Made by a program: the position numbers and the translations under genes
Part shown: in pieces, positions 3,982 to 57,735 of the stretch
Layout: every line of letters begins with the position of its first letter
How positions within the stretch are numbered: position 1 is the first letter of the stretch
Source: a virus
Taxonomy: Duplodnaviria > Caudoviricetes
Virus record (IMG/VR): IMGVR_UViG_3300021979_000004
Location: 96,001 to 160,000 of that record
Direction: 5' to 3' (one strand)
Length of the DNA stretch: 64,000 nucleotides
The notes under the pieces: model-generated
What the model was told of the DNA's origin: nothing
Databases searched by the model: none
What the model saw: the letters and a program-made list of their open reading frames with translations, nothing else

Positions 3982-5139
3982 TTACAAGTACATATTCCAA
4001 GGATATCTATAAACCGGTTCCCCAGAAATTTCATCGTTTCTTGTTGTTTTTTCATGCAATCCCAATATCATTTCGGAAAGCTTTTGTGAGGTTAACATTT
4101 TTGCAACCGTATAAGCACTTTCCATCTTTCTCTTAGAATACACGTTTTTTATGATTTGTAAATCATTAAGTGTTATATCGTGACCATATACCTCTATTAA
4201 CTTTTTAAAGCGAAGTATGTGTGCATTGACATTTAGCTGACGATATACATCACTCTCTTCCTTGGAGAGTTTATAATTGTTTGGATACAGAACCATACTG
4301 TTAGGAACATTACTTAACTCTTTGGTATATCCTCGAACCTTCATATAGTTTTCTTCTTCTACATTAACATAGTCGTTTTTCTTTAACGCGACTTTGAAAT
4401 AAGTACCTGTACTTTTTATATCTCTGTTCTGATGGAAAGCACGTTGAGTGACTTCCATATATTTCATACCATAATCTTTAAGAACATAACCAGATGACGT
4501 ATAAAAGTTAGTTCCCTTAAAATTATAAATGGCATCCTCTTTGGTATTCGAAGCTTTTCTATAAAAGTCAACATAAAGATACTGTGCAGCAATTGCAGAT
4601 ACAATAGGGCTACAAATAGGATCAGTTCTGTTTAATCCAACTACCCTAGATGGTAAATATTCAATTTCATCAGGATCACTATCATACAGAATGCTATCTA
4701 CAAATTCTTTTAATAAAATCGGATAATCATATATCTCTTCAGTAGCAAATTCTGTTAAAATGGTCAGAATCATATTGTAGATATCACGGTGCATATTCCA
4801 GTCAGTATCATGACGAATTCCCGCTATCTTTGTTTTTCTTGAGCTTGAAGACACTGGATACGAAAGAGTGAAAAAGTTATGATATTCTAAACCGTTATAG
4901 AAATCATTACTGGCAAGAATTCTTTTGGTTGTTTCATGATCTACCGTTGTGTGTATAGTTCCTTCAAGACCATAAAACTTTTCAAAATTCCCATCATTAA
5001 TAGTTTTCATATCAATACCGTTACATTCTATGCGTGGGTATCGATAATCACCATCCTTCATAAAGAATTCAGATTTAATATTAATCTTTGAGTTTTCTAA
5101 TAGTTTAATAAGATTTGAAAGTTTTAAACGGTTAATCAT
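3982..5139 (-). CDS. hypothetical protein
   Basis: 385-aa ORF; start overlaps the upstream stop (ATGA). Confidence 0.75.
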   Translation of the reverse strand: MINRLKLSNLIKLLENSKINIKSEFFMKDGDYRYPRIECNGIDMKTINDGNFEKFYGLEGTIHTTVDHETTKRILASNDFYNGLEYHNFFTLSYPVSSSSRKTKIAGIRHDTDWNMHRDIYNMILTILTEFATEEIYDYPILLKEFVDSILYDSDPDEIEYLPSRVVGLNRTDPICSPIVSAIAAQYLYVDFYRKASNTKEDAIYNFKGTNFYTSSGYVLKDYGMKYMEVTQRAFHQNRDIKSTGTYFKVALKKNDYVNVEEENYMKVRGYTKELSNVPNSMVLYPNNYKLSKEESDVYRQLNVNAHILRFKKLIEVYGHDITLNDLQIIKNVYSKRKMESAYTVAKMLTSQKLSEMILGLHEKTTRNDEISGEPVYRYPWNMYL

Positions 5140-5930
5140 ACCATGCTCTTAAAGAGTTCCTTAATATCAATTCCTTTTTCTTTTGCTACCGATTCTGCCC
5201 ATGTGCTGTTAATAAGCACAAACTTTTCTGAATGGATATGAAGCTCTTCTTTTTTAACATCGCCAAGATTAACATTGTCAACGACGTTACCCTTAATCAT
5301 ACGATCAACGTGATTGAGGATTTCTTTTTTAACCAGTTTAACAAAGCTGTCGCTAAGAATCTTGTTTCTTAGGCTCTTAGACAGAAATTCACGATTAGCG
5401 AGAACAATACGCTGGCGGGTATCTTCCTCGTCAATTAGTTCAATATTATCACTAATGCTATCGATAAGGTGTGAAACATATACTGGTTCCATATCACCAA
5501 CATCAAGCTTAGATACGATAGAATCAGCAATCACATCAAGGTCTTGCAGGAGTTGAAGATAAAAGTCTGTGATGCCTTTAACATACATCATATCCAGATT
5601 ATCTCCTGCTGGAATAACATAGTACAAACCTTTAGTGGCATCATTCACGTTACGCACATAGGTAAACAGTGATTCAGAACGATACGCAACACCATACTGA
5701 TATTCATATACAGTATCGATATAGTCATGAATGAATTCAGGGGTATTAGTAGGTGTACGGTTTGACTTATTCTTGACGACAGAAAAAGTACTAACCGACA
5801 TTTTCTTACTATAGTGAACACCGATATTTCCAGAAGCAACTACATTTTTAAGGTAGGATGAAGAAACTGGTGATGCCTTTACAATAGACTTCAGTTCTTC
5901 ATAGCTCTTTACAATATCATCTACTTTCAT
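5136..5930 (-). CDS. hypothetical protein, possible ADP-ribosyltransferase-like fold; paralog of 37778..38458
   Basis: RTPTNTPEFIHDYIDTVYEYQYGVAYRSESLF..GLYYVIPAG aligns with RPKPMSMDAEDHQISNEWFKEKFNVAARTNTVF..SIHYVFPVG. Confidence 0.55.
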   Translation of the reverse strand: MKVDDIVKSYEELKSIVKASPVSSSYLKNVVASGNIGVHYSKKMSVSTFSVVKNKSNRTPTNTPEFIHDYIDTVYEYQYGVAYRSESLFTYVRNVNDATKGLYYVIPAGDNLDMMYVKGITDFYLQLLQDLDVIADSIVSKLDVGDMEPVYVSHLIDSISDNIELIDEEDTRQRIVLANREFLSKSLRNKILSDSFVKLVKKEILNHVDRMIKGNVVDNVNLGDVKKEELHIHSEKFVLINSTWAESVAKEKGIDIKELFKSMV

Positions 5931-5956
5931 TCTGTATCCTCTATAGTAAGGGTTAG

Positions 5957-5985
5957 AAAAGGGGCGAGGTTACCGAAGTAACCTC
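5957..5985 (-). terminator. hairpin/terminator with C(UUCG)G tetraloop
   Basis: GAGGTTAC-TTCG-GTAACCTC followed by GCCCCTTTTCT on the minus strand. Confidence 0.6.
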
Positions 5986-6002
5986 TCACTGGCAGTGTTG
6001 AA

Positions 6003-6146
6003 TTATTTACAAAAGTCTGCGTACATGACGTTGAGCTTGATCCATTGTTTACGGCTCATGACCAGAGGCGTAGTGTTCTTACCGATCCGCTCACACATAC
6101 GAGCAAGTTTTGATTCTTTGCGAGTATTGGCGTTTACAATTTTCAT
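6003..6146 (-). CDS. small basic protein (47 aa, below the ORF-track cutoff)
   Basis: MKIVNANTRKESKLARMCERIGKNTTPLVMSRKQWIKLNVMYADFCK with RBS GAGAGG. Confidence 0.6.
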   Translation of the reverse strand: MKIVNANTRKESKLARMCERIGKNTTPLVMSRKQWIKLNVMYADFCK

Positions 6147-6201
6147 AACAATGTCCTCTCTCAAGTGTTATAAACATTATAACATTAAAATTGAAAGAGG
6201 G

Positions 6202-6438
6202 TCAAGGATTATCTAGATTAATTGATAATGTTCTTGTAAAAAATTCACCTTCACGATCTTTATTCTGGTACTTAAGCTCAAACTCAAAGGTCGATCCTTC
6301 TTCGTTATAATGGGCTTTTACTCCAACAAGACCTTCTTCTTTATAGTTATTAACCAATCGTTCAATATCAGTTAAGGCTTCTTCCGTGACCAATACTTTT
6401 TTGATTCGGTAAGGGTTGCTCATATTGTCACCACTCAT
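6202..6438 (-). CDS. hypothetical protein
   Basis: 78-aa ORF. Confidence 0.65.
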   Translation of the reverse strand: MSGDNMSNPYRIKKVLVTEEALTDIERLVNNYKEEGLVGVKAHYNEEGSTFEFELKYQNKDREGEFFTRTLSINLDNP

Positions 6439-6646
6439 TAAATATCAAATCGTTTTTTAAATTCATTCCATGAAGCATGTGGATATTCGGACTCACAAAC
6501 CATATGAGTATCAGGAATATCTTTAAACGCCTTAAGTTTATTGTACTGACTACCAAATACACTTTCGTTTAGATAGTTAATCATATCATCATACTCAGAT
6601 TCAGGCAAGTTATAAACGATACAACCTTCTTCAGCAACGTTTTCAT

Positions 6647-6934
6647 TTACAACGTATTTTCGTAAACAGGATCATCGTTTTTGGTCATTTCTTTGAAGAA
6701 CTCTTCAGCATCTTCAACAGTGTCAAAGTCCATGCCTTCATATTCTTCAAAGCTAGGCTCAGCGTCACAGAACTCATACTGTCCATCTTCTTTCTTCTCA
6801 AGCTTACCAATACGAGTACCACCGTGAATAGTAACGGTATAATCGTCTTCATCTTTAATAACAGCAGCCACGTCTAATGGATTCTCACGTGTAGCATTTT
6901 CTACAAGCTGAATCATTTCTTTCATGTTTTTCAT
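6647..6934 (-). CDS. acidic late protein, candidate head-internal protein
   Basis: Start MKNMKEMIQLVEN at 6934; CTAAATA late-type element at 6962-6968. Confidence 0.65.
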   Translation of the reverse strand: MKNMKEMIQLVENATRENPLDVAAVIKDEDDYTVTIHGGTRIGKLEKKEDGQYEFCDAEPSFEEYEGMDFDTVEDAEEFFKEMTKNDDPVYENTL

Positions 6935-6950
6935 AATATTTTTTCCCTTG

Positions 6951-7454
6951 TTATGTACCATTATTTAGGGAATGTGTGAAATCTGACATTATTAATAGTC
7001 TTCCACCAAAGGCTTCAGACAAAAACTTATACATGCTACGATTAGAAATCTTAACACGGTTTAGTGCATCTTTGTTTACATTAAAAACAATTCTGGTCAC
7101 ATAGTATTCATCAAAGTGAATCTGATGCGTTACAGGGCATGAAGGATAACCAACCAATTCTGACGAAGATAATCCTAACTTAAAATCTTTCTTATCAATC
7201 TCTTGCTCAAGATAACATTGAAAGTTCACTAGGGCTTGATGCTCAAAATTAGAAAGATCATCCAGTGTATCATATCCCATACGCTTAACTTCGTTCGCAG
7301 ATGCACATAGAAAAAGAACTGAATGTTGGGCACTACGACTGTTTTTAGGTTTTACAATCTCAGGTTTACAATCCATATCATTCACCGTTAATAAGTTCAT
7401 CCAGAATATCTTCCAACCATTTTTCACGCTCTTGATATTCCTTTTCATGATCAC
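6951..7454 (-). CDS. hypothetical protein
   Basis: 167-aa ORF. Confidence 0.65.
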   Translation of the reverse strand: MIMKRNIKSVKNGWKIFWMNLLTVNDMDCKPEIVKPKNSRSAQHSVLFLCASANEVKRMGYDTLDDLSNFEHQALVNFQCYLEQEIDKKDFKLGLSSSELVGYPSCPVTHQIHFDEYYVTRIVFNVNKDALNRVKISNRSMYKFLSEAFGGRLLIMSDFTHSLNNGT

Positions 7455-7818
7455 TCAGGAAAGTCCAAAGGCGCTCAAATGGTTCAATTTCTTTAATAAT
7501 ACAACTACGGGTATACTCTTTCGTACCGACATATTTGATAATTGCTAACGTTGAGAAATTGTTTACATTATCAACGTAAAATACAAGTTCTGTACCTTTT
7601 ACTTTGTAAAGATAATAGTATCCTTTCTCAATGGTTCTATGTGAATACGGGTTAAGATCAAACCAAAGTTTATTCACTTTTGTAGGTGATCTTCCACTAA
7701 GGGCCTTGATAACTTTATCAACAATATTATTTTCTTTATAAAGATCAGAGCTTTCATACTTAACCTTCTGGTATAAACGCTCTGCTTCTTCTGTTGGGTC
7801 TACTGGTTTAAACGACAT
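7378..7818 (-). CDS. hypothetical protein
   Basis: 146-aa ORF with RBS GAGG; 3' end overlaps the next gene. Confidence 0.65.
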   Translation of the reverse strand: MSFKPVDPTEEAERLYQKVKYESSDLYKENNIVDKVIKALSGRSPTKVNKLWFDLNPYSHRTIEKGYYYLYKVKGTELVFYVDNVNNFSTLAIIKYVGTKEYTRSCIIKEIEPFERLWTFLSDHEKEYQEREKWLEDILDELINGE

Positions 7819-7827
7819 ATGCTATCC

Positions 7828-8910
7828 TCAGTACTCAGGAAATTCCCTTGAAATGTAATTACTACCATACTTCCAAAGCTGATCTACCGTTCGGGTCATG
7901 ATCAGGCATCCATGACCTCTTAGGTTGACTACAACAACCTCTTCATCCGGTGATGGGTAAAGCTCTACCACCTCATCAAACTCTTCTAGAAAGCCACATG
8001 GAACCTTGCTGGAAGTCATCTTAGCACCTTCGATGTATACATGCCCATGCACCATGTAATTAATGTTTGGATAATAATTGAACAACTTAACCTGAATCGG
8101 TGTGTCTACTGAAGGTTTACGATCACCATAGTAAAGAACTGACCCATTGAATTCAGGACTCACTTCTACAAACCCATCTGTTTCGATTAGTTTCTTATCG
8201 ATATTACGCTGTGTGACAAAGATACGATCTTGCTGTCTCTCAGCAGGAAACCCAAACATACAACGTGTACTTGCGTTACCCAATAGACGGTTAGGGTTAA
8301 CAGCGTTTACGTACTTAGTGAATTCATTAGCTGAATATTTAACAAACTCAATAAACTCTGGATCGATAGTGAACTCACGTTCTTCATCGATTTTTTTACT
8401 AGGCACACGAGTCATTGAGAACAATTGATTAATACGATTTAAGATAGTATCTGCCAATTCTTCGATTGAACAGGTATCAACATACAAGTTACCAAGAGGA
8501 TCAAGCAGTTTAAACTTATAAAGGTTCTTGGGCTTGGTAATCATGATTCCAAGGTTACTTTTTGATTTAAGTAGTCGGCCAATTACATCAGACTCTTTGT
8601 ATTCTTTTTCAACCACACGCTTAGAGCTAATAAGCAATGCTCTAGGTGCTTCTTCTTTAATTCTCGGAAGAATCTTATCTTCATCATTAGAAATATTTGG
8701 CATCCAGATAATAACATCGTAACGACTATACTTAAGGTCATCAGTAAGGATACTTAATGCACCACCATTGACCCAATCACATTCAAATCCTGAATGCTCA
8801 TCCATGTACTCAGTGAATTTTAAAATAACACTAGATACATTAGAGTCTTTATATTCATTTGGATCATCAAGGTGTTCAAATGTACCACCAACAATTAGCA
8901 TTTTTTTCAT
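7828..8910 (-). CDS. class II aldolase/adducin-domain protein
   Basis: C-terminal half has KPSVDTP.H-type segment, YMVHGHVY and NLRGHGCLI metal-binding motifs. Confidence 0.7.
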   Translation of the reverse strand: MKKMLIVGGTFEHLDDPNEYKDSNVSSVILKFTEYMDEHSGFECDWVNGGALSILTDDLKYSRYDVIIWMPNISNDEDKILPRIKEEAPRALLISSKRVVEKEYKESDVIGRLLKSKSNLGIMITKPKNLYKFKLLDPLGNLYVDTCSIEELADTILNRINQLFSMTRVPSKKIDEEREFTIDPEFIEFVKYSANEFTKYVNAVNPNRLLGNASTRCMFGFPAERQQDRIFVTQRNIDKKLIETDGFVEVSPEFNGSVLYYGDRKPSVDTPIQVKLFNYYPNINYMVHGHVYIEGAKMTSSKVPCGFLEEFDEVVELYPSPDEEVVVVNLRGHGCLIMTRTVDQLWKYGSNYISREFPEY

Positions 8911-9626
8911 ACATTATCTCCAAATCGTTTGCGATATTCTCTCATAATTTTACTGTGTCGGTTTTTATTGACATGATACCGCTCTAGGTTTATACCGTTG
9001 AGCTTGTCGTACATTGTACAAACAATGTAATCCATATGTCCATCATAAACTTTGTCAACAAACACTTTAGAAGGAATTGATTTGTTTAATCTGATTTTTT
9101 TGAAATCATAAGCCCTTCCTTCAGTAGTCTCAGTGACAACCGGACAGGATACTGAATAAGTATAGCGTGTGCCTTTTGTTACCTCACGCTTGTAAGCTAC
9201 CTTACTTGCAATTTTATTTTTATCTAAATCCCCAACCAAGCGGGTATAGATATGCATGATTCTTGGACTAACTTCGACAAGATTACCATGATAGCAATTC
9301 TTAGAATTACCATCTACATGTAAAATATTTCCAGTAGGCCAATCTCCATAAACCAAAAGCCAGATCAAACGACTTCGTAGCATTTTATATTGCTTACCAT
9401 TGAGTTTAAAATCTACTGTAAGGTATTCGTATGTTGCACCAGTTGGGGTAGTCATAACTTGTGAAGTTAGGGGTAAAGGACGATCAAAATACTTCTTACC
9501 TATAGCACTTACGGAGTATGGCGTGTTTTTATTATAAAACAAACTACCAGTTCCATCGTAATAATAATGCGCTAAACAAAATTGTTTCAGTCGTTCATTG
9601 TCTTCTTTATTCCTTAGTCGGGGCAT
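8907..9626 (-). mobile_element. HNH homing endonuclease-like gene (HNH_3 type)
   Basis: RSRLIWLLVYGDWPTGNILHVDGNSKNCYHGNL matches the HRLxW..G..P....HxdGxxxNNxxxNL pattern. Confidence 0.7.
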
Positions 9627-41806: not shown

Positions 41807-42565
41807 TTAGCCAAAGTAGATGTTATAACCCTCATCATCAGTTACAGAGTTCTGTAATTGTTCATCGAGTTTTTCCATCTCAGCTTGAGCTTCCTGTTTC
41901 AATTCGCTTCCGTTCAGTGTAACACCACCTTGTGGTCCTGCCAAGGTCTGGAATTTACTACGGGCTTCACCCATAATCATCTTGGCTTTTGCAGCAGCGT
42001 ATGAAATTATCCATGGGCGAATATACACATCACCTAGAAGCTCTTCATCACTTCTATAGGACTCAGTGACCAGAAGGAAAACTTCATCACGGCCAATCTT
42101 ATTGAATATCTGTAGAATCTTAGTACTAGGGTTCCAAGAATAATCAATACGACCAGCAACGATTTGTTCCAGTGTCTTTATGTAGTTGTGTTGAATATGC
42201 ACTGTGGCAATACTACCGTATGTCATATTCTGGTTTAGAGCGTGCATCATCTGGTTCATATACATCATCAAGAATGGGTCTTGTGTGTAGTCAGTTGCGG
42301 CACTTGAACCGATAGTATTTCTTTTTATTTCTTTTATATCAACAATATCAGTATCACTTAGATCATACTGTTGAGTAAACTTTTTATATTTAAAAATAGT
42401 ACCAGTTTCGGCAGTGGCATTTGAGGCACGTTGTCTATAAACTTTCATTGCAAAGTCAAGGCAATAGTTGATATGTTCTTTCTTAAGGTCTACATCAACA
42501 ATTCCATCGCCTAGCGTAAGTCTTACCTCTTGTACAGCTTGTTTCATTACTTTTGATTCAGGCAT
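41807..42565 (-). CDS. neck protein (T4 gp13-like)
   Basis: LGDGIVDVDL, WIISYAAAKAKMIMGEARSKF..GPQGGVTLNG..LKQEAQ. Confidence 0.85.
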   Translation of the reverse strand: MPESKVMKQAVQEVRLTLGDGIVDVDLKKEHINYCLDFAMKVYRQRASNATAETGTIFKYKKFTQQYDLSDTDIVDIKEIKRNTIGSSAATDYTQDPFLMMYMNQMMHALNQNMTYGSIATVHIQHNYIKTLEQIVAGRIDYSWNPSTKILQIFNKIGRDEVFLLVTESYRSDEELLGDVYIRPWIISYAAAKAKMIMGEARSKFQTLAGPQGGVTLNGSELKQEAQAEMEKLDEQLQNSVTDDEGYNIYFG

Positions 42566-42618: not shown

Positions 42619-42626
42619 TATAAATA
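42619..42626 (+). promoter_or_regulatory. T4-type late promoter
   Basis: TATAAATA upstream of the terminase fragment; AATAAATA on the opposite strand at 42591-42598 faces gp13. Confidence 0.75.
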
Positions 42627-42652
42627 ATATGTACATAAAAAAGGATAATAAG

Positions 42653-42997
42653 ATGAGTGAAAAGTTTACAGACTCTTTTGTAGTTGAAGATTGGGAAGTA
42701 CTAACGCCGGTCGGATACCGAGATATAATGAGCTTTCATAAAACAATTGAGTTTGATGTATGGGAAATATCAACTGATAGCTTCACCCTGAAGTGTGCTG
42801 ATGATCATATTGTTATGAAGCATGGGGTAGTTGAGACATTTGTTAAAAATATCAACGTAGGTGATAAAATCTTGACGGATAACGGACTTGAAACTGTTAT
42901 CGAAGTCAAAGACTTGGGTTACAAAGAACCGATGTATGATATTCAAGTAAATGATTTCTCTCAGCTATATTACAGTAATGGTATTGTAAGTCATAAT
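42653..42997 (+). mobile_element. split intein C-terminal half (115 aa, atypically long IntC)
   Basis: Block B-like CADDH, block F MYDIQV, block G NGIVSHN followed by Thr +1; no N-terminal Cys/Ser block A. Confidence 0.9.
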
Positions 42998-43546
42998 ACT
43001 GCTTGTGCATCGCTTTATCTATTGTGGTATGCGATGTTCGTACCTGATACAAACATTCTAGTAGCGGCTCACAAAGGCAGTGGTGCGGCAGAAATCATGG
43101 ATCGTATACGTTATGCGTATGAAGAATGTCCAGATCATATACGTTGTGGTGTCACCACTTATGCTAGTGGACGTATCGTATTTGACAACAAGTCTTCTAT
43201 AGTTGCACAAACCACTACAGAAAATACAGGACGTGGTTTATCTATTTCCTTGCTTTACTGTTTGGATGCTGGTACTATGGTTCGGGTCAGAGATAAGGAA
43301 ACTAAAGAAGAGAAAGACGTTTCTTTGGAAACCTTATACACTGAGCTTAATGGCGATGAGTTCATTGAGTTTAAGAAGCAAGCCATGCTCAGAGTAGTAT
43401 TTGAAGACGATTATTATGTGGATGTCCCTGAGTCGTACATGTTTACCGTGAATGACATAAAGACAACCATAGAGAACATTACACATGGTGATGAAATATT
43501 GATCGGAAACGAATACTTTAAAGTTGTTGATATACAAGCAATTTAA
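42653..43546 (+). CDS. terL: terminase large subunit middle fragment: IntC(1)-TerL extein-IntN(2)
   Basis: Start MSEKF (RBS AAGGA); extein AHKGSGAAEIMDRI..VFDNKSSI..NTGRGLSISLLY matches the T4 gp17 ATPase between Walker A and Walker B. Confidence 0.9.
   Translation: MSEKFTDSFVVEDWEVLTPVGYRDIMSFHKTIEFDVWEISTDSFTLKCADDHIVMKHGVVETFVKNINVGDKILTDNGLETVIEVKDLGYKEPMYDIQVNDFSQLYYSNGIVSHNTACASLYLLWYAMFVPDTNILVAAHKGSGAAEIMDRIRYAYEECPDHIRCGVTTYASGRIVFDNKSSIVAQTTTENTGRGLSISLLYCLDAGTMVRVRDKETKEEKDVSLETLYTELNGDEFIEFKKQAMLRVVFEDDYYVDVPESYMFTVNDIKTTIENITHGDEILIGNEYFKVVDIQAI
43259..43543 (+). mobile_element. split intein N-terminal half (95 aa)
   Basis: Block A CLDAGTMVRV..VSLETLY; ends at a stop with no block F/G. 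Confidence 0.85.
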
Positions 43547-43562: not shown

Positions 43563-43590
43563 TTGACAAAATTTCTGAAGCTGGTAATCT
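43563..43590 (+). promoter_or_regulatory. sigma70-like early promoter
   Basis: TTGACA-16nt-(TGG)TAATCT. Confidence 0.55.
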
Positions 43591-43656: not shown

Positions 43657-43956
43657 ATGGCACAGCAAGACTTTAACCGTAACCGTCAGCGTAACCCACG
43701 TCGCAACGATAATCGTCGTAACGAAAATCGTATGCCTCTGGACCCACTGGTGCTTCAGGCGCTAGACTTCATCAACCTTCACGCTGACAATAGTCGTGTT
43801 TATAAGTGCTTCCATAAGAGCAAGAAAACTGGCACTCTGGAAACTTTCGGTGTGTATAACAGCGTGACTAAGAAACACGCTATCTTCTACACCACGAATT
43901 TCTTCCCGCAAGATTTCATGGAAATCAAGCTGGTCACTCTTGAGAAAGATAGCTGA
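43657..43956 (+). CDS. hypothetical protein with Arg/Asn-rich N-terminus
   Basis: NRNRQRNPRRNDNRRNENR; A-rich leader and RBS GAGG. Confidence 0.8.
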   Translation: MAQQDFNRNRQRNPRRNDNRRNENRMPLDPLVLQALDFINLHADNSRVYKCFHKSKKTGTLETFGVYNSVTKKHAIFYTTNFFPQDFMEIKLVTLEKDS

Positions 43957-47326: not shown

Positions 47327-47812
47327 ATGAACACATGGGATAGAAGGTTTTTAGGATTGGCACTGTTTTACTCATCCTTTTCTAAAGACCCTTCCACTAA
47401 GGTTGGTTGTGTACTTGTTAATGATAAGAACGTACCAGTCGGCCTTGGTTATAATGGTTTTTCACGTCATTCAAAAGACCTACCAGAAATACTTAATGAT
47501 CGTCCTGAAAAATATAAAAGAACCATTCACGCAGAAGAGAATGCCATCTACAATAGAACTGGTGATATTGAAGGATCGATTGCTTACCTTACCCATCCAC
47601 CTTGTGTGCCTTGTGTAAATCGCTTAAGCCAGAACGGTATTAAGGATGTTAGATTTATTCAAGGAACCGATGAAGACTTTTATGAACGATGGAATCTAGG
47701 CGAATCAGTATCTGAAATTGAAGAACTCAAAATGACTTATCAATCATATGTTATGAATGATGATGAAAAAGATAAAATATTCATGGAAGTGATGAAATCA
47801 TGGCGAAGCTAA
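47327..47812 (+). CDS. cd: dCMP deaminase
   Basis: SKDPSTKVGC, GYNG, HAEENA, PCVPC. Confidence 0.92.
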   Translation: MNTWDRRFLGLALFYSSFSKDPSTKVGCVLVNDKNVPVGLGYNGFSRHSKDLPEILNDRPEKYKRTIHAEENAIYNRTGDIEGSIAYLTHPPCVPCVNRLSQNGIKDVRFIQGTDEDFYERWNLGESVSEIEELKMTYQSYVMNDDEKDKIFMEVMKSWRS

Positions 47813-48402
47813 AATTTGTCTACTCAGTAATGAACGCTGGAAAAAGTACTCACTTGTTACAACTTGCACATAACTATAGTGTCTTTCACAATAAGACACT
47901 ATTGATAACCTCAGACCTTGATACGCGTTCAAAGGTTGGTGATCAGTATTATGTAGAGTCTAGATTGGGTATAAAACATGAAGCAATACCATATAGTAGA
48001 GAACAAGACATTCAGGAAATTCTTGAAAGTATAGACTATACTCCATCATGTATTGTTGTCGATGAGGCACAATTCCTTAGCCCATATAACGTACAACAAC
48101 TTACAGACTTGGTAGACTTCATGAATATTCCAGTTGTTTGCTATGGTCTGAGGACTGATTCGTTTGGTAACTTATTTGAAGGTAGTGAAGAGCTTTTTAA
48201 ACATGCCGACAAAATAGAAGAGATAAAACAACTGTGTTTCTGTATGTCAAAAGCAACACATATTTTACGTTATGATGATGATTTTAATGTTGTAAAAAAA
48301 GGGAACCAAGTTGAAATTGGTTCCGAGGATAAGTATGTCTCTGTGTGCCGTAAGCACTGGAAAACATTAAAGAGTGTTAAGTTTTTGAAAACCAATGATT
48401 AA
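47800..48402 (+). CDS. tdk: thymidine kinase
   Basis: SVMNAGKST, VDEAQF, YGLRTD, CFC, VSVCRKHW. Confidence 0.95.
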   Translation: MAKLKFVYSVMNAGKSTHLLQLAHNYSVFHNKTLLITSDLDTRSKVGDQYYVESRLGIKHEAIPYSREQDIQEILESIDYTPSCIVVDEAQFLSPYNVQQLTDLVDFMNIPVVCYGLRTDSFGNLFEGSEELFKHADKIEEIKQLCFCMSKATHILRYDDDFNVVKKGNQVEIGSEDKYVSVCRKHWKTLKSVKFLKTND

Positions 48403-56828: not shown

Positions 56829-56928
56829 AATACTCTCCTAATTTATGATAGTCTACCATTCAGTCACCTACTGATCAACAGTTTAATATTCTAATGCTAT
56901 GTGTTATAATGCAGAAAAAGAGGTAGTT

Positions 56929-57735
56929 ATGAATATTCAAATTGAAGATGAAAACATACTGAACGTTCTAAACGAGAGTGTCATTGATCGCTTTGAGTTC
57001 GGATCGAAAATATATGGACTTGAGACTGAAAAGTCTGATGCTGATGACATTGCTGTGATCAAACAAAACGATTTCTTTGCCAATACCTTTCTATGGGAAC
57101 ATCATACTATTCAAAGGGCTAGTGAAGAACGTGACACCATCTATACTACCTTGCAGTTGTTGGTAAGGAACCTTATGACTGGTGACTCCACAGCATACTT
57201 TGAAACGCTTCATAGCAATCAGTGTGACGGTACTATACTTGAATTCCTAGCTGACAGGAAATCATGGTTTTATAACTTCACTACCATTCGATCTTTTGTT
57301 GGGTATGCACGTCGAGATATCAAGCACTCTAAGGATAATGGTAAGCGTTTTGCACATGCGGTACGTTGTTACTATGCCGCCAAGATGTTGTTTGATGATC
57401 ATTTTTATACCAATGACTATCGTGAGTATGATACTAACGTGTATGAATACATCCGTTCAATGAAATTGGGTACACATGGTCTAAGTAAGTATGAACTGTC
57501 TCAAGAGATTCAGTATTATAAAAAATCTATTGATGACTTGAGGAAACAGGTTAGTGAGAGCTTTAATAGTAATCAACGGAAGTATGACCGTTATATGTCG
57601 GCTGAGCGTCTTAGAGAGATAGATGCTTATGTTATAGACAAAAACAAGACATTGTGGTATGATTTGGAAGATGAAGAGAATTTTTACATTTATCAAATGT
57701 ACCACGCACTAGAAAACGGTATTGAATATGGATAA
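56929..57735 (+). CDS. second Pol-beta-type nucleotidyltransferase
   Basis: FGSKIYG..SDADD; SFVGYARRD; KRFAHAVR. Confidence 0.75.
   Translation: MNIQIEDENILNVLNESVIDRFEFGSKIYGLETEKSDADDIAVIKQNDFFANTFLWEHHTIQRASEERDTIYTTLQLLVRNLMTGDSTAYFETLHSNQCDGTILEFLADRKSWFYNFTTIRSFVGYARRDIKHSKDNGKRFAHAVRCYYAAKMLFDDHFYTNDYREYDTNVYEYIRSMKLGTHGLSKYELSQEIQYYKKSIDDLRKQVSESFNSNQRKYDRYMSAERLREIDAYVIDKNKTLWYDLEDEENFYIYQMYHALENGIEYG

Follow-up and report, generated by a model that had tools for sequence, protein, structure and literature searches.

The closest described relatives of the gene analysed here are the atypically split inteins AceL-TerL, GOS-TerL and Cat-TerL (PMC2677866, PMC11766414, 6dsl). They have a T4-type large terminase subunit (TerL) as host protein, which is split once, and they pair a short N-terminal intein half (IntN) of 25-37 amino acids (aa) with a long C-terminal half (IntC) of 104-122 aa that contains block B. 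AceL-TerL is given an IntN of 25 aa, an IntC of 104 aa, Cys1 and Cys+1, and GOS-TerL an IntN of 37 aa, an IntC of 115 aa, Ser1 and Cys+1 (PMC11766414). Single split TerL inteins of this kind are already in use as protein-engineering tools. Two other systems are relevant. In the "fractured genes" of Dassa et al. 2009 (PMC2677866) a split intein interrupts a conserved phage enzyme gene, and a free-standing endonuclease gene lies between the two parts in the same orientation. In engineered tandem trans-splicing (PMC12707363) two orthogonal split inteins ligate three segments, of which the middle one has the form IntC-X-IntN and is joined to two flanks. The subject of this work is a gene at positions 42653-43546 (plus strand) of a 64,000-nucleotide stretch of viral DNA (the window; GC content 35.5%), which comprises bases 96001-160000 of the 217,982-bp linear IMG/VR record IMGVR_UViG_3300021979_000004 (G000; CheckV completeness estimate 73%). 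Its product of 297 aa (P0001) consists of an IntC of 115 aa (IntC1, ending ...NGIVSHN), a TerL extein of 87 aa (TACASLYLLWYAMF...GRGLSISLLY, beginning TACASLY) and an IntN of 95 aa (IntN2, starting CLDAGTMVRV), followed by TAA. We estimate a probability of roughly 85% that this is the middle piece of a TerL ATPase encoded in three unlinked genes and joined by two split inteins plus a cis intein. This arrangement differs from the published TerLs in that two such inteins yield three pieces and a cis intein is added, and in that the first site uses a +1 Thr/Ser rather than Cys. It differs from engineered tandem splicing in that it is natural, both inteins belong to one atypical family and orthogonality is no design feature.

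The location of both junctions can be read from intein-free homologs. TerLs of this type in IMG/VR, 70-75% identical to the 87-aa segment, read ...RQTGK/TT.AAG...SISLLY/CDEFAFVRP (a slash marks each junction), and because they are continuous at these points, the segment starts after the Walker A lysine and stops before the C/L-D-E of Walker B. A phmmer search of the PDB aligns residues 115-206 to T4 gp17 166-257 in 3ezk, with T116 at T167 of the gp17 GKT motif and Y202 at Y253, after which I254-D255-E256 come next. The sequence-only reading, an earlier interpretation made from the letters of the window, had given the coordinates of the gene and its segments, which are exact base for base. It had also described an isolated middle TerL fragment lying between halves of two different split inteins, with the +1 Thr being that of Walker A GK-T and the segment ending at LLY before Walker B. 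The intein-free homologs and the gp17 alignment both confirm this description, with the junctions at GK/T (site a) and LLY/CDE (site b). PHROG TerL families 5989 and 36964 match the extein, and the AlphaFold2 (AF2) model of the protein (predicted local distance difference test score, pLDDT, 80.5) superposes on the gp17 ATPase domain 2o0j with Z 9.7 and a root-mean-square deviation (rmsd) of 1.2 over 91 aa. The protein is of the T4 type in that the extein corresponds to gp17 167-253, from Walker A to Walker B, the C-terminal piece has a nuclease match (PF17289, Terminase_6C) and the Walker A part belongs to the N-terminal piece; T4 gp17 itself (3ezk, 2o0h, 3cpe) differs in being one polypeptide without inteins. 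The exteins of the three pieces sum to 87 + 87 + 360 = 534 aa, compared with open frames (stop to stop) of 523-541 aa in intein-free homologs.

We ran the TerL profiles PF03237, phrog_36964, phrog_5989 and phrog_2 over the whole 218-kb record, where they match just two genes, the middle gene and a C-terminal piece (C piece) outside the window; within the 64 kb of the window they found no further TerL piece, in agreement with the sequence-only reading. A gene starting with an IntC, followed by Walker B and the nuclease domain, had been predicted as the C-terminal partner, and the C piece is such a gene in the same genome. It is made up of a 110-aa IntC (IntC2, MKSNEKYEILTPTGW...VCTPEHKL...NDLISSN), the segment CDELAFVNKRIALEFWTSVFPTLS (the extein beginning CDELAFV, with Walker B), a cis intein of 224 aa (CVTYDT...GILGSN/TGGS) located 24 residues past the trans-splice site, and TGGSCIITSTP followed by the ATPase remainder and the nuclease domain (phrog_36964 E 1e-67; PF17289). 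Site b is therefore represented by LLY and IntN2 in the middle gene, by IntC2 and CDELAFV in a gene 65 kb away, and by LLY/CDEFAFV in homologs.

The flanking segments have the anatomy of intein halves. For IntC1, phmmer matched VidaL (6vgv, E 1.9e-5) and CatC (6dsl_B, E 7e-5) in the PDB. VidaL is also the best structural match of IntC1, AF2 residues 7-117 aligning to residues 28-143 of the 6vgv chain with Z 14.3 and rmsd 2.5 over 110 aa, so that only its first ~27 residues (the IntN part) remain unaligned; it differs from IntC1 in showing 26% identity, and presumably in having a host protein other than TerL. The IntC1 model matches Cat IntC (6dsl_B) at Z 13.2 and dozens of inteins at Z > 10. 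IntC1 has the block B His, the C-terminal His-Asn and the +1 nucleophile, and across 58 middle-fragment homologs H52, S113, H114, N115, Y202 and C203 are invariant while T116 is conserved in at least 90%, with Ser in the remainder; among middle-fragment homologs the C203, L204, D205 stretch is invariant or almost so. IntN2 and IntC2 together supply the position-1 Cys, the block B T..H, the block F Asp, the terminal Asn/Gln and the +1 Cys. In 19 IntC2 clusters H46, D89 and the following CDELAF are invariant, T43 is conserved in at least 90%, and the C-terminal residue is N in 15 and Q in four (P0134-P0137). Both IntC1 (115 aa) and IntC2 (110 aa) contain block B and match CatC, as expected of atypically split inteins, and they are 27-33% identical within one phage. 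All segments are under purifying selection: relative to the ortholog on contig L265, the nonsynonymous divergence (dN) is 0.151 for IntC1, 0.031 for the extein, 0.034 for the first part of IntN2 (IntN2a) and 0.045 for its tail, the synonymous divergence (dS) being saturated.

These residues also bear on the idea that the HINT halves do no more than dock the pieces non-covalently, an active ATPase being assembled without a peptide bond at one or both sites, which we consider quite improbable. IntC2 lacks a penultimate His and is Gln-ended in 4/19 clusters, and IntN2 carries a catalytically dead HINT module, which such docking would accommodate; yet distant homologs show little or no variation at Cys1, the block B His, the block F Asp, the terminal Asn/Gln or the +1 Thr/Ser or Cys, the literature records splicing by inteins with a terminal Gln or without the penultimate His, and a HINT domain of ~140-200 aa kept within the two Walker motifs would presumably disrupt the P-loop fold.

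The same layout is found in Salicola phage SCTP-2 (MF360958), a cultured and viable phage with a complete genome of 440 kb, in which the three TerL pieces lie at ~429, 256 and 216 kb. Its gp267 is the ortholog of the middle gene (56.6% identity, 100% coverage), its C piece starts with an IntC2 reading ...NVSQ/CDEFAFV, Gln-ended like the four clusters above, and also contains the cis intein, which is absent from contig L182. Its N-terminal piece (N piece) of 130 aa reads ...NMLARQLGK/CVDYETNITVRHKETGEEQTLPIGEFFEK..., with an IntN1 of 43 aa. Beyond this phage the layout is widespread within a clade of large phages. The 120 best hits of a search of 5.8 billion proteins with the middle fragment include ~39 long-tail clusters (296-314 aa, whole protein covered, 49-95% identity) and ~35 short-tail clusters (class S, 233-261 aa) with the same middle fragment and an IntN2 of 36-40 aa, which places the fragment in at least ~75 protein clusters. 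All 19 C-piece clusters begin with an IntC2 of 107-116 aa that ends in N or Q and is followed by CDELAF. The N-terminal partner predicted by the sequence-only reading, a gene ending in RQxGK plus a short IntN, exists in SCTP-2, in contigs L182, L185, L267 and L268 and in a large family; when an N-piece profile was compared with 1.84 billion cluster representatives, 76 of the best 147 representatives at 50% identity were stand-alone N pieces, with RQxGK/C, 25-68 aa and a stop. The IntN lengths in relatives are 25-70 aa for IntN1 and 36-40 aa for IntN2 in class S. In Vibrio phage vB_VmeM-32 TerL is split at site a only, and a contiguous intein lies three residues downstream of site b.

With the relatives in hand, two further explanations can be weighed. 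One is that the fragments are decaying, non-functional remnants, an intact functional terL being encoded where the genome is unsequenced; the record is incomplete and lacks the N piece, which speaks for this, but neither the 218-kb record nor the complete SCTP-2 genome, which has the three pieces only, contains an intact TerL, frames and boundaries are kept in dozens of lineages, catalytic residues are invariant and in every segment dN falls far short of the saturated dS, which makes decay very improbable. The other, raised by the sequence-only reading itself, is that the start and stop of the gene are false and result from assembly or sequencing errors. We found no point in its favour and regard it as barely conceivable: the same protein of 297-298 aa, with 78-95% identity and identical neighbours, occurs in independent assemblies of other samples, and boundaries and synteny agree between data from ENA, Logan, JGI and a GenBank isolate, which differ in sample and pipeline.

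Two side observations concern the isolates named above. In vB_VmeM-32 a 161-aa open reading frame (ORF) directly upstream of the N piece (L013:2145-2630) matches the TerL ATPase core (phrog_2 286-374); it has a degenerate Walker A, RQLGLTT, and could represent a middle segment that was duplicated and then decayed. In SCTP-2 a 535-aa ATPase-like gene (L014:1204-2811; Walker A GSAGSGKT, PhoH-like by eye) has an apparent intein-like insert and matched the intein part of phrog_36964.

Other relatives still keep the pieces in order. L182 (a 282-kb ENA contig) and L267 (a 335-kb JGI contig) have a co-oriented block of N piece, ORF of 429-444 aa, middle piece, ORF of 426-436 aa and C piece, with overlapping stops and starts. 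The two ORFs between the L182 TerL pieces are paralogs (phrog_22677) and putative nucleases, and the ORF after the L185 N piece has a T5orf172 domain, which we take to be related to GIY-YIG nucleases. In L268 (JGI 3300020198, Ga0194120_10000834, 4537-9528) TerL is divided into four ordered pieces of 122 aa (N), 249 aa (middle), 246 aa and 365 aa. The third piece consists of IntC2, CDEFSY...FRREFN and a 32-aa IntN3, its TAA abutting the ATG of the fourth, which starts with an IntC3 reading ...ILSSN/CEFLV..., so that a third split intein occupies FRREFN/CEFLV (site d). This layout is that of "fractured genes" (PMC2677866), occurring twice in one gene and three times in L268; the difference is that this genome and SCTP-2 lack the intervening genes and have their pieces tens to hundreds of kb apart. 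The fractured-gene arrangement is accordingly absent here, where the neighbours of the middle gene are a gp13-like gene and small ORFs; in this genome, SCTP-2, L265 and L266 the middle gene stands alone beside the gp13-like gene.

Site d also clarifies the relationship to the published inteins. Compared with the CatC chain (6dsl_B), IntC1 reaches 25 bits, IntC2 36 bits and the site-d IntC of L268 46 bits, and the chain continues C-E, like CEFLV. Going by this best score and continuation, the published TerL inteins probably occupy site d, and those at sites a and b would be further members of the same atypical family that are not allelic to them. An assignment of the published inteins to site b, which also has a +1 Cys, was dropped after site d was found in L268. 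The likeness to AceL-TerL and GOS-TerL seen by the sequence-only reading extends to the short IntN and long IntC, the published AceL, GOS and Cat inteins being most like a fourth site (FRRE../CEF) that is empty in this phage.

The 95-aa IntN2 had been taken for a plain N-half. Its boundaries stand, but relatives need 36-40 aa, also in TerLs split at site b alone, and its last 57 aa are of another kind. Profile comparison by hhalign aligns this tail with IntC2 residues 25-79 at a probability of 94% and E 1.2e-7; where IntC2 has the catalytic T..H, the tail has P..Y. Its AF2 pLDDT is > 90, and against 48,161 PDB representatives its top 27 matches are all intein or HINT-fold chains aligned at the core (best, 5bkh Z 8.8 and 6riz Z 8.4, rmsd 1.6 over 56 aa); a Pfam search of the tail returned nothing significant. 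Alignment and model identify the tail as a second, catalytically dead version of the HINT core present in IntC2. It is surplus to the HINT fold because IntC2 already has blocks B to G and class-S relatives manage with an IntN2 of 36-40 aa; a canonical N-half of ~100 aa was rejected, as IntC2 holds block B to N4. Selection on the tail is as strong as on the extein (dN 0.045 vs 0.031), and an 11-residue block, VNDIKTTIENI, is identical in SCTP-2. In the few cases examined, genomes with dispersed pieces have it (this genome, SCTP-2, L265 and L266) and those with ordered, adjacent pieces do not (L182, L267 and L268). As far as we found, such a 57-aa dead HINT module on an IntN distinguishes this intein from described split inteins. 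A tentative and rather doubtful explanation, though the one we prefer, is that the tail is a natural decoy or cage, which as a dead version of the IntN2a-binding part of IntC2 folds back on IntN2a in the free middle fragment. If so, it would block pairing of IntN2a with IntC1 of the same chain (circularisation) and with other partners until the true IntC2 displaces it, and would keep the reactions of a natural tandem system orthogonal or in order. The tail may be a built-in device for specificity or solubility.

The model that we favour, a TerL assembled from three gene products, comprises the following steps, whose occurrence and order we infer from sequence. An N piece with ~87 aa of TerL ending ...RQxGK and an IntN1 of 25-70 aa would be encoded outside the partial record. 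IntN1 would complete the HINT fold of IntC1, and Cys1, Asn115 and the +1 residue Thr116 would splice to restore Walker A (GK-T). The first ~38 residues of IntN2 would complete IntC2, and Cys203, the terminal Asn and the +1 Cys would restore Walker B (LLY-CDE). The third intein, the 224-aa element of the C piece, would splice in cis, giving three splicing events overall and a TerL of ~534 aa as product. The proposal of the sequence-only reading, two trans-splicing reactions joining three polypeptides, is thereby kept in its three-gene, two-split-intein layout and amended by the additional cis splice.

Several points weigh against this model. The N piece was not found in the 218-kb partial record by a regular expression (G[KR][CS]), by tblastn with the SCTP-2 and VmeM-32 N pieces, by PHROG 36964/2/5989 and PF03237, or by a hidden Markov model of eight N pieces (--max), which leaves that part of the earlier prediction without a counterpart in this record. 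IntC2 has no penultimate His (SSN) and ends in Gln in some relatives, and the redundant tail is left unexplained by this model. In SCTP-2, IntN1 and IntN2 share 45% identity over 36 aa, and cross-reaction between them, or a circularised middle piece, might occur. Finally, splicing in these phages is a prediction from sequence. Concerning the N piece, C pieces with an 85-87% identical IntC2 sit on contigs of 457,965 and 461,710 bp, and for this reason well under three quarters of the genome may be in the record. A position beside thymidine kinase, as in SCTP-2, was considered and rejected, as here tk lies at 47800-48402 with nothing TerL-like adjacent. A metagenome scan yielded one N piece, that of L185, which is from a related phage and not from this one.

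How the arrangement came about is a separate question. The sequence-only reading had seen in it a three-input AND gate on DNA packaging. That the three-way split is kept for adaptive control, as a post-translational AND gate or timer on a packaging ATPase that needs three separately regulated products, seems unlikely to us. Such control would fit the position of both splice sites in catalytic motifs, hence every unspliced piece would be inert, as well as the age of the arrangement, conserved over many lineages, and the upstream signals that each dispersed piece has of its own. However, inteins in general typically insert at conserved motifs, both pieces here have the same late-promoter-like motif at the same spacing and 3/3 SCTP-2 pieces have [TC]ATAAATA upstream, so that different inputs are unsupported, and the single co-oriented block with overlapping ORFs in relatives is the signature of selfish intein/endonuclease invasion (PMC2677866). 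A selfish-element legacy is more parsimonious: because relatives still hold the pieces in order, we propose that split inteins accompanied by free-standing endonuclease genes invaded and "fractured" the gene twice, after which the intervening genes disappeared and the pieces became scattered.

The coordinates of all features are listed in Table 1. The ATG at 42653 was taken as the start because homologs begin MSEK, despite a further in-frame ATG at 42629. Upstream of the C piece lie another copy of TATAAATA, 25 nt from its ATG, and the ribosome-binding site AGGAG. Since TATAAATA is not enriched in the window (9 found vs 8.6 expected), late expression of the TerL pieces is presumed, and the one informative aspect of the motif is its placement 25-27 nt before both TerL pieces of the record, which is suggestive. 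The divergent gp13 neighbour named by the sequence-only reading is supported by profile matches.

Table 1. Positions of the TerL middle gene, its signals, its neighbour and the C piece (window coordinates unless G000 is given)
Feature	Position	Strand	Remarks
TATAAATA, T4-type late-promoter-like motif	42619..42626	+	27 nt upstream of ATG; putative promoter function
Ribosome-binding site AAGGA	42641..42645	+	7 nt before ATG; read from sequence
IntC1, long C-half of atypically split intein, TerL site a (Walker A)	42653..42997	+	Block B A49..H52; end S113-H114-N115
TerL extein, 87 aa = T4 gp17 167-253	42998..43258	+	Walker A Thr (GK-T) to hydrophobic strand LLY preceding Walker B Asp-Glu
IntN2a, predicted functional short N-half, ~38 aa, TerL site b (Walker B)	43259..43372	+	Cys203 = start, block A
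IntN2 tail, 57 aa, degenerate HINT-core duplicate (block B to N4)	43373..43543	+	Catalytic T..H to P..Y; motif VNDIKTTIENI
TAA stop, end of middle fragment	43544..43546	+	Same end in 39 homolog clusters
Divergent gp13-like neck/adaptor gene (context only, not TerL)	41807..42565	-	phrog_211 E 5e-36; PF26809 Phage_T4_gp13 on L265/L266 orthologs
C piece of TerL	G000 71579-73663 (L001:409-2493)		Outside window, 24.4 kb before window start; 65 kb upstream of middle gene

Some observations on the surroundings of the gene and on the rest of the record are given here in their own right. A sigma-70-like promoter (TTGACA, 16 nt, TAATCT) lies at window positions 43563-43590, after the TerL fragment and before a small basic ORF at 43657-43956, which agrees with the "early gene" neighbour of the sequence-only reading. 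A 92-aa ORF is contained in a ~390-bp repeat (G000 56867-57259 and 217299-217641, the second copy near the end of the record) that is 82-84% identical in DNA to L185:2765-3146, 0.85 kb upstream of the L185 N piece. A clamp-loader-like AAA+ gene outside the window (G000 209975-212978) looks fractured at Walker A, reading GPPGTGK/CLDGSEYIDV... and then a stop, and the ORF at G000 209975-211153 matches the IntC2 profile (i-E 4e-6); on the strength of these two observations the phage would have several atypically split inteins.

Our full-text literature searches found no description of a naturally three-piece TerL or of the split terL of SCTP-2; they returned single split TerL inteins and engineered three-piece ligations. 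As far as we found, a natural enzyme that would need two trans-splicing reactions (three in one relative) and one cis-splicing reaction is undescribed. The layout offers natural intein pairs with a very short IntN for three- or four-segment ligation. Because annotation pipelines label the fragments "terminase large subunit" or "hypothetical", completeness estimates of giant phages and TerL phylogenies may be affected. For the phages themselves, the question arises of how mis-ligation and circularisation are avoided with two homologous inteins in Walker A and Walker B of an essential motor. The series seen among the relatives, from an intact gene to a fractured and ordered one and then to dispersed pieces, documents how selfish elements can fragment and scatter an essential gene.

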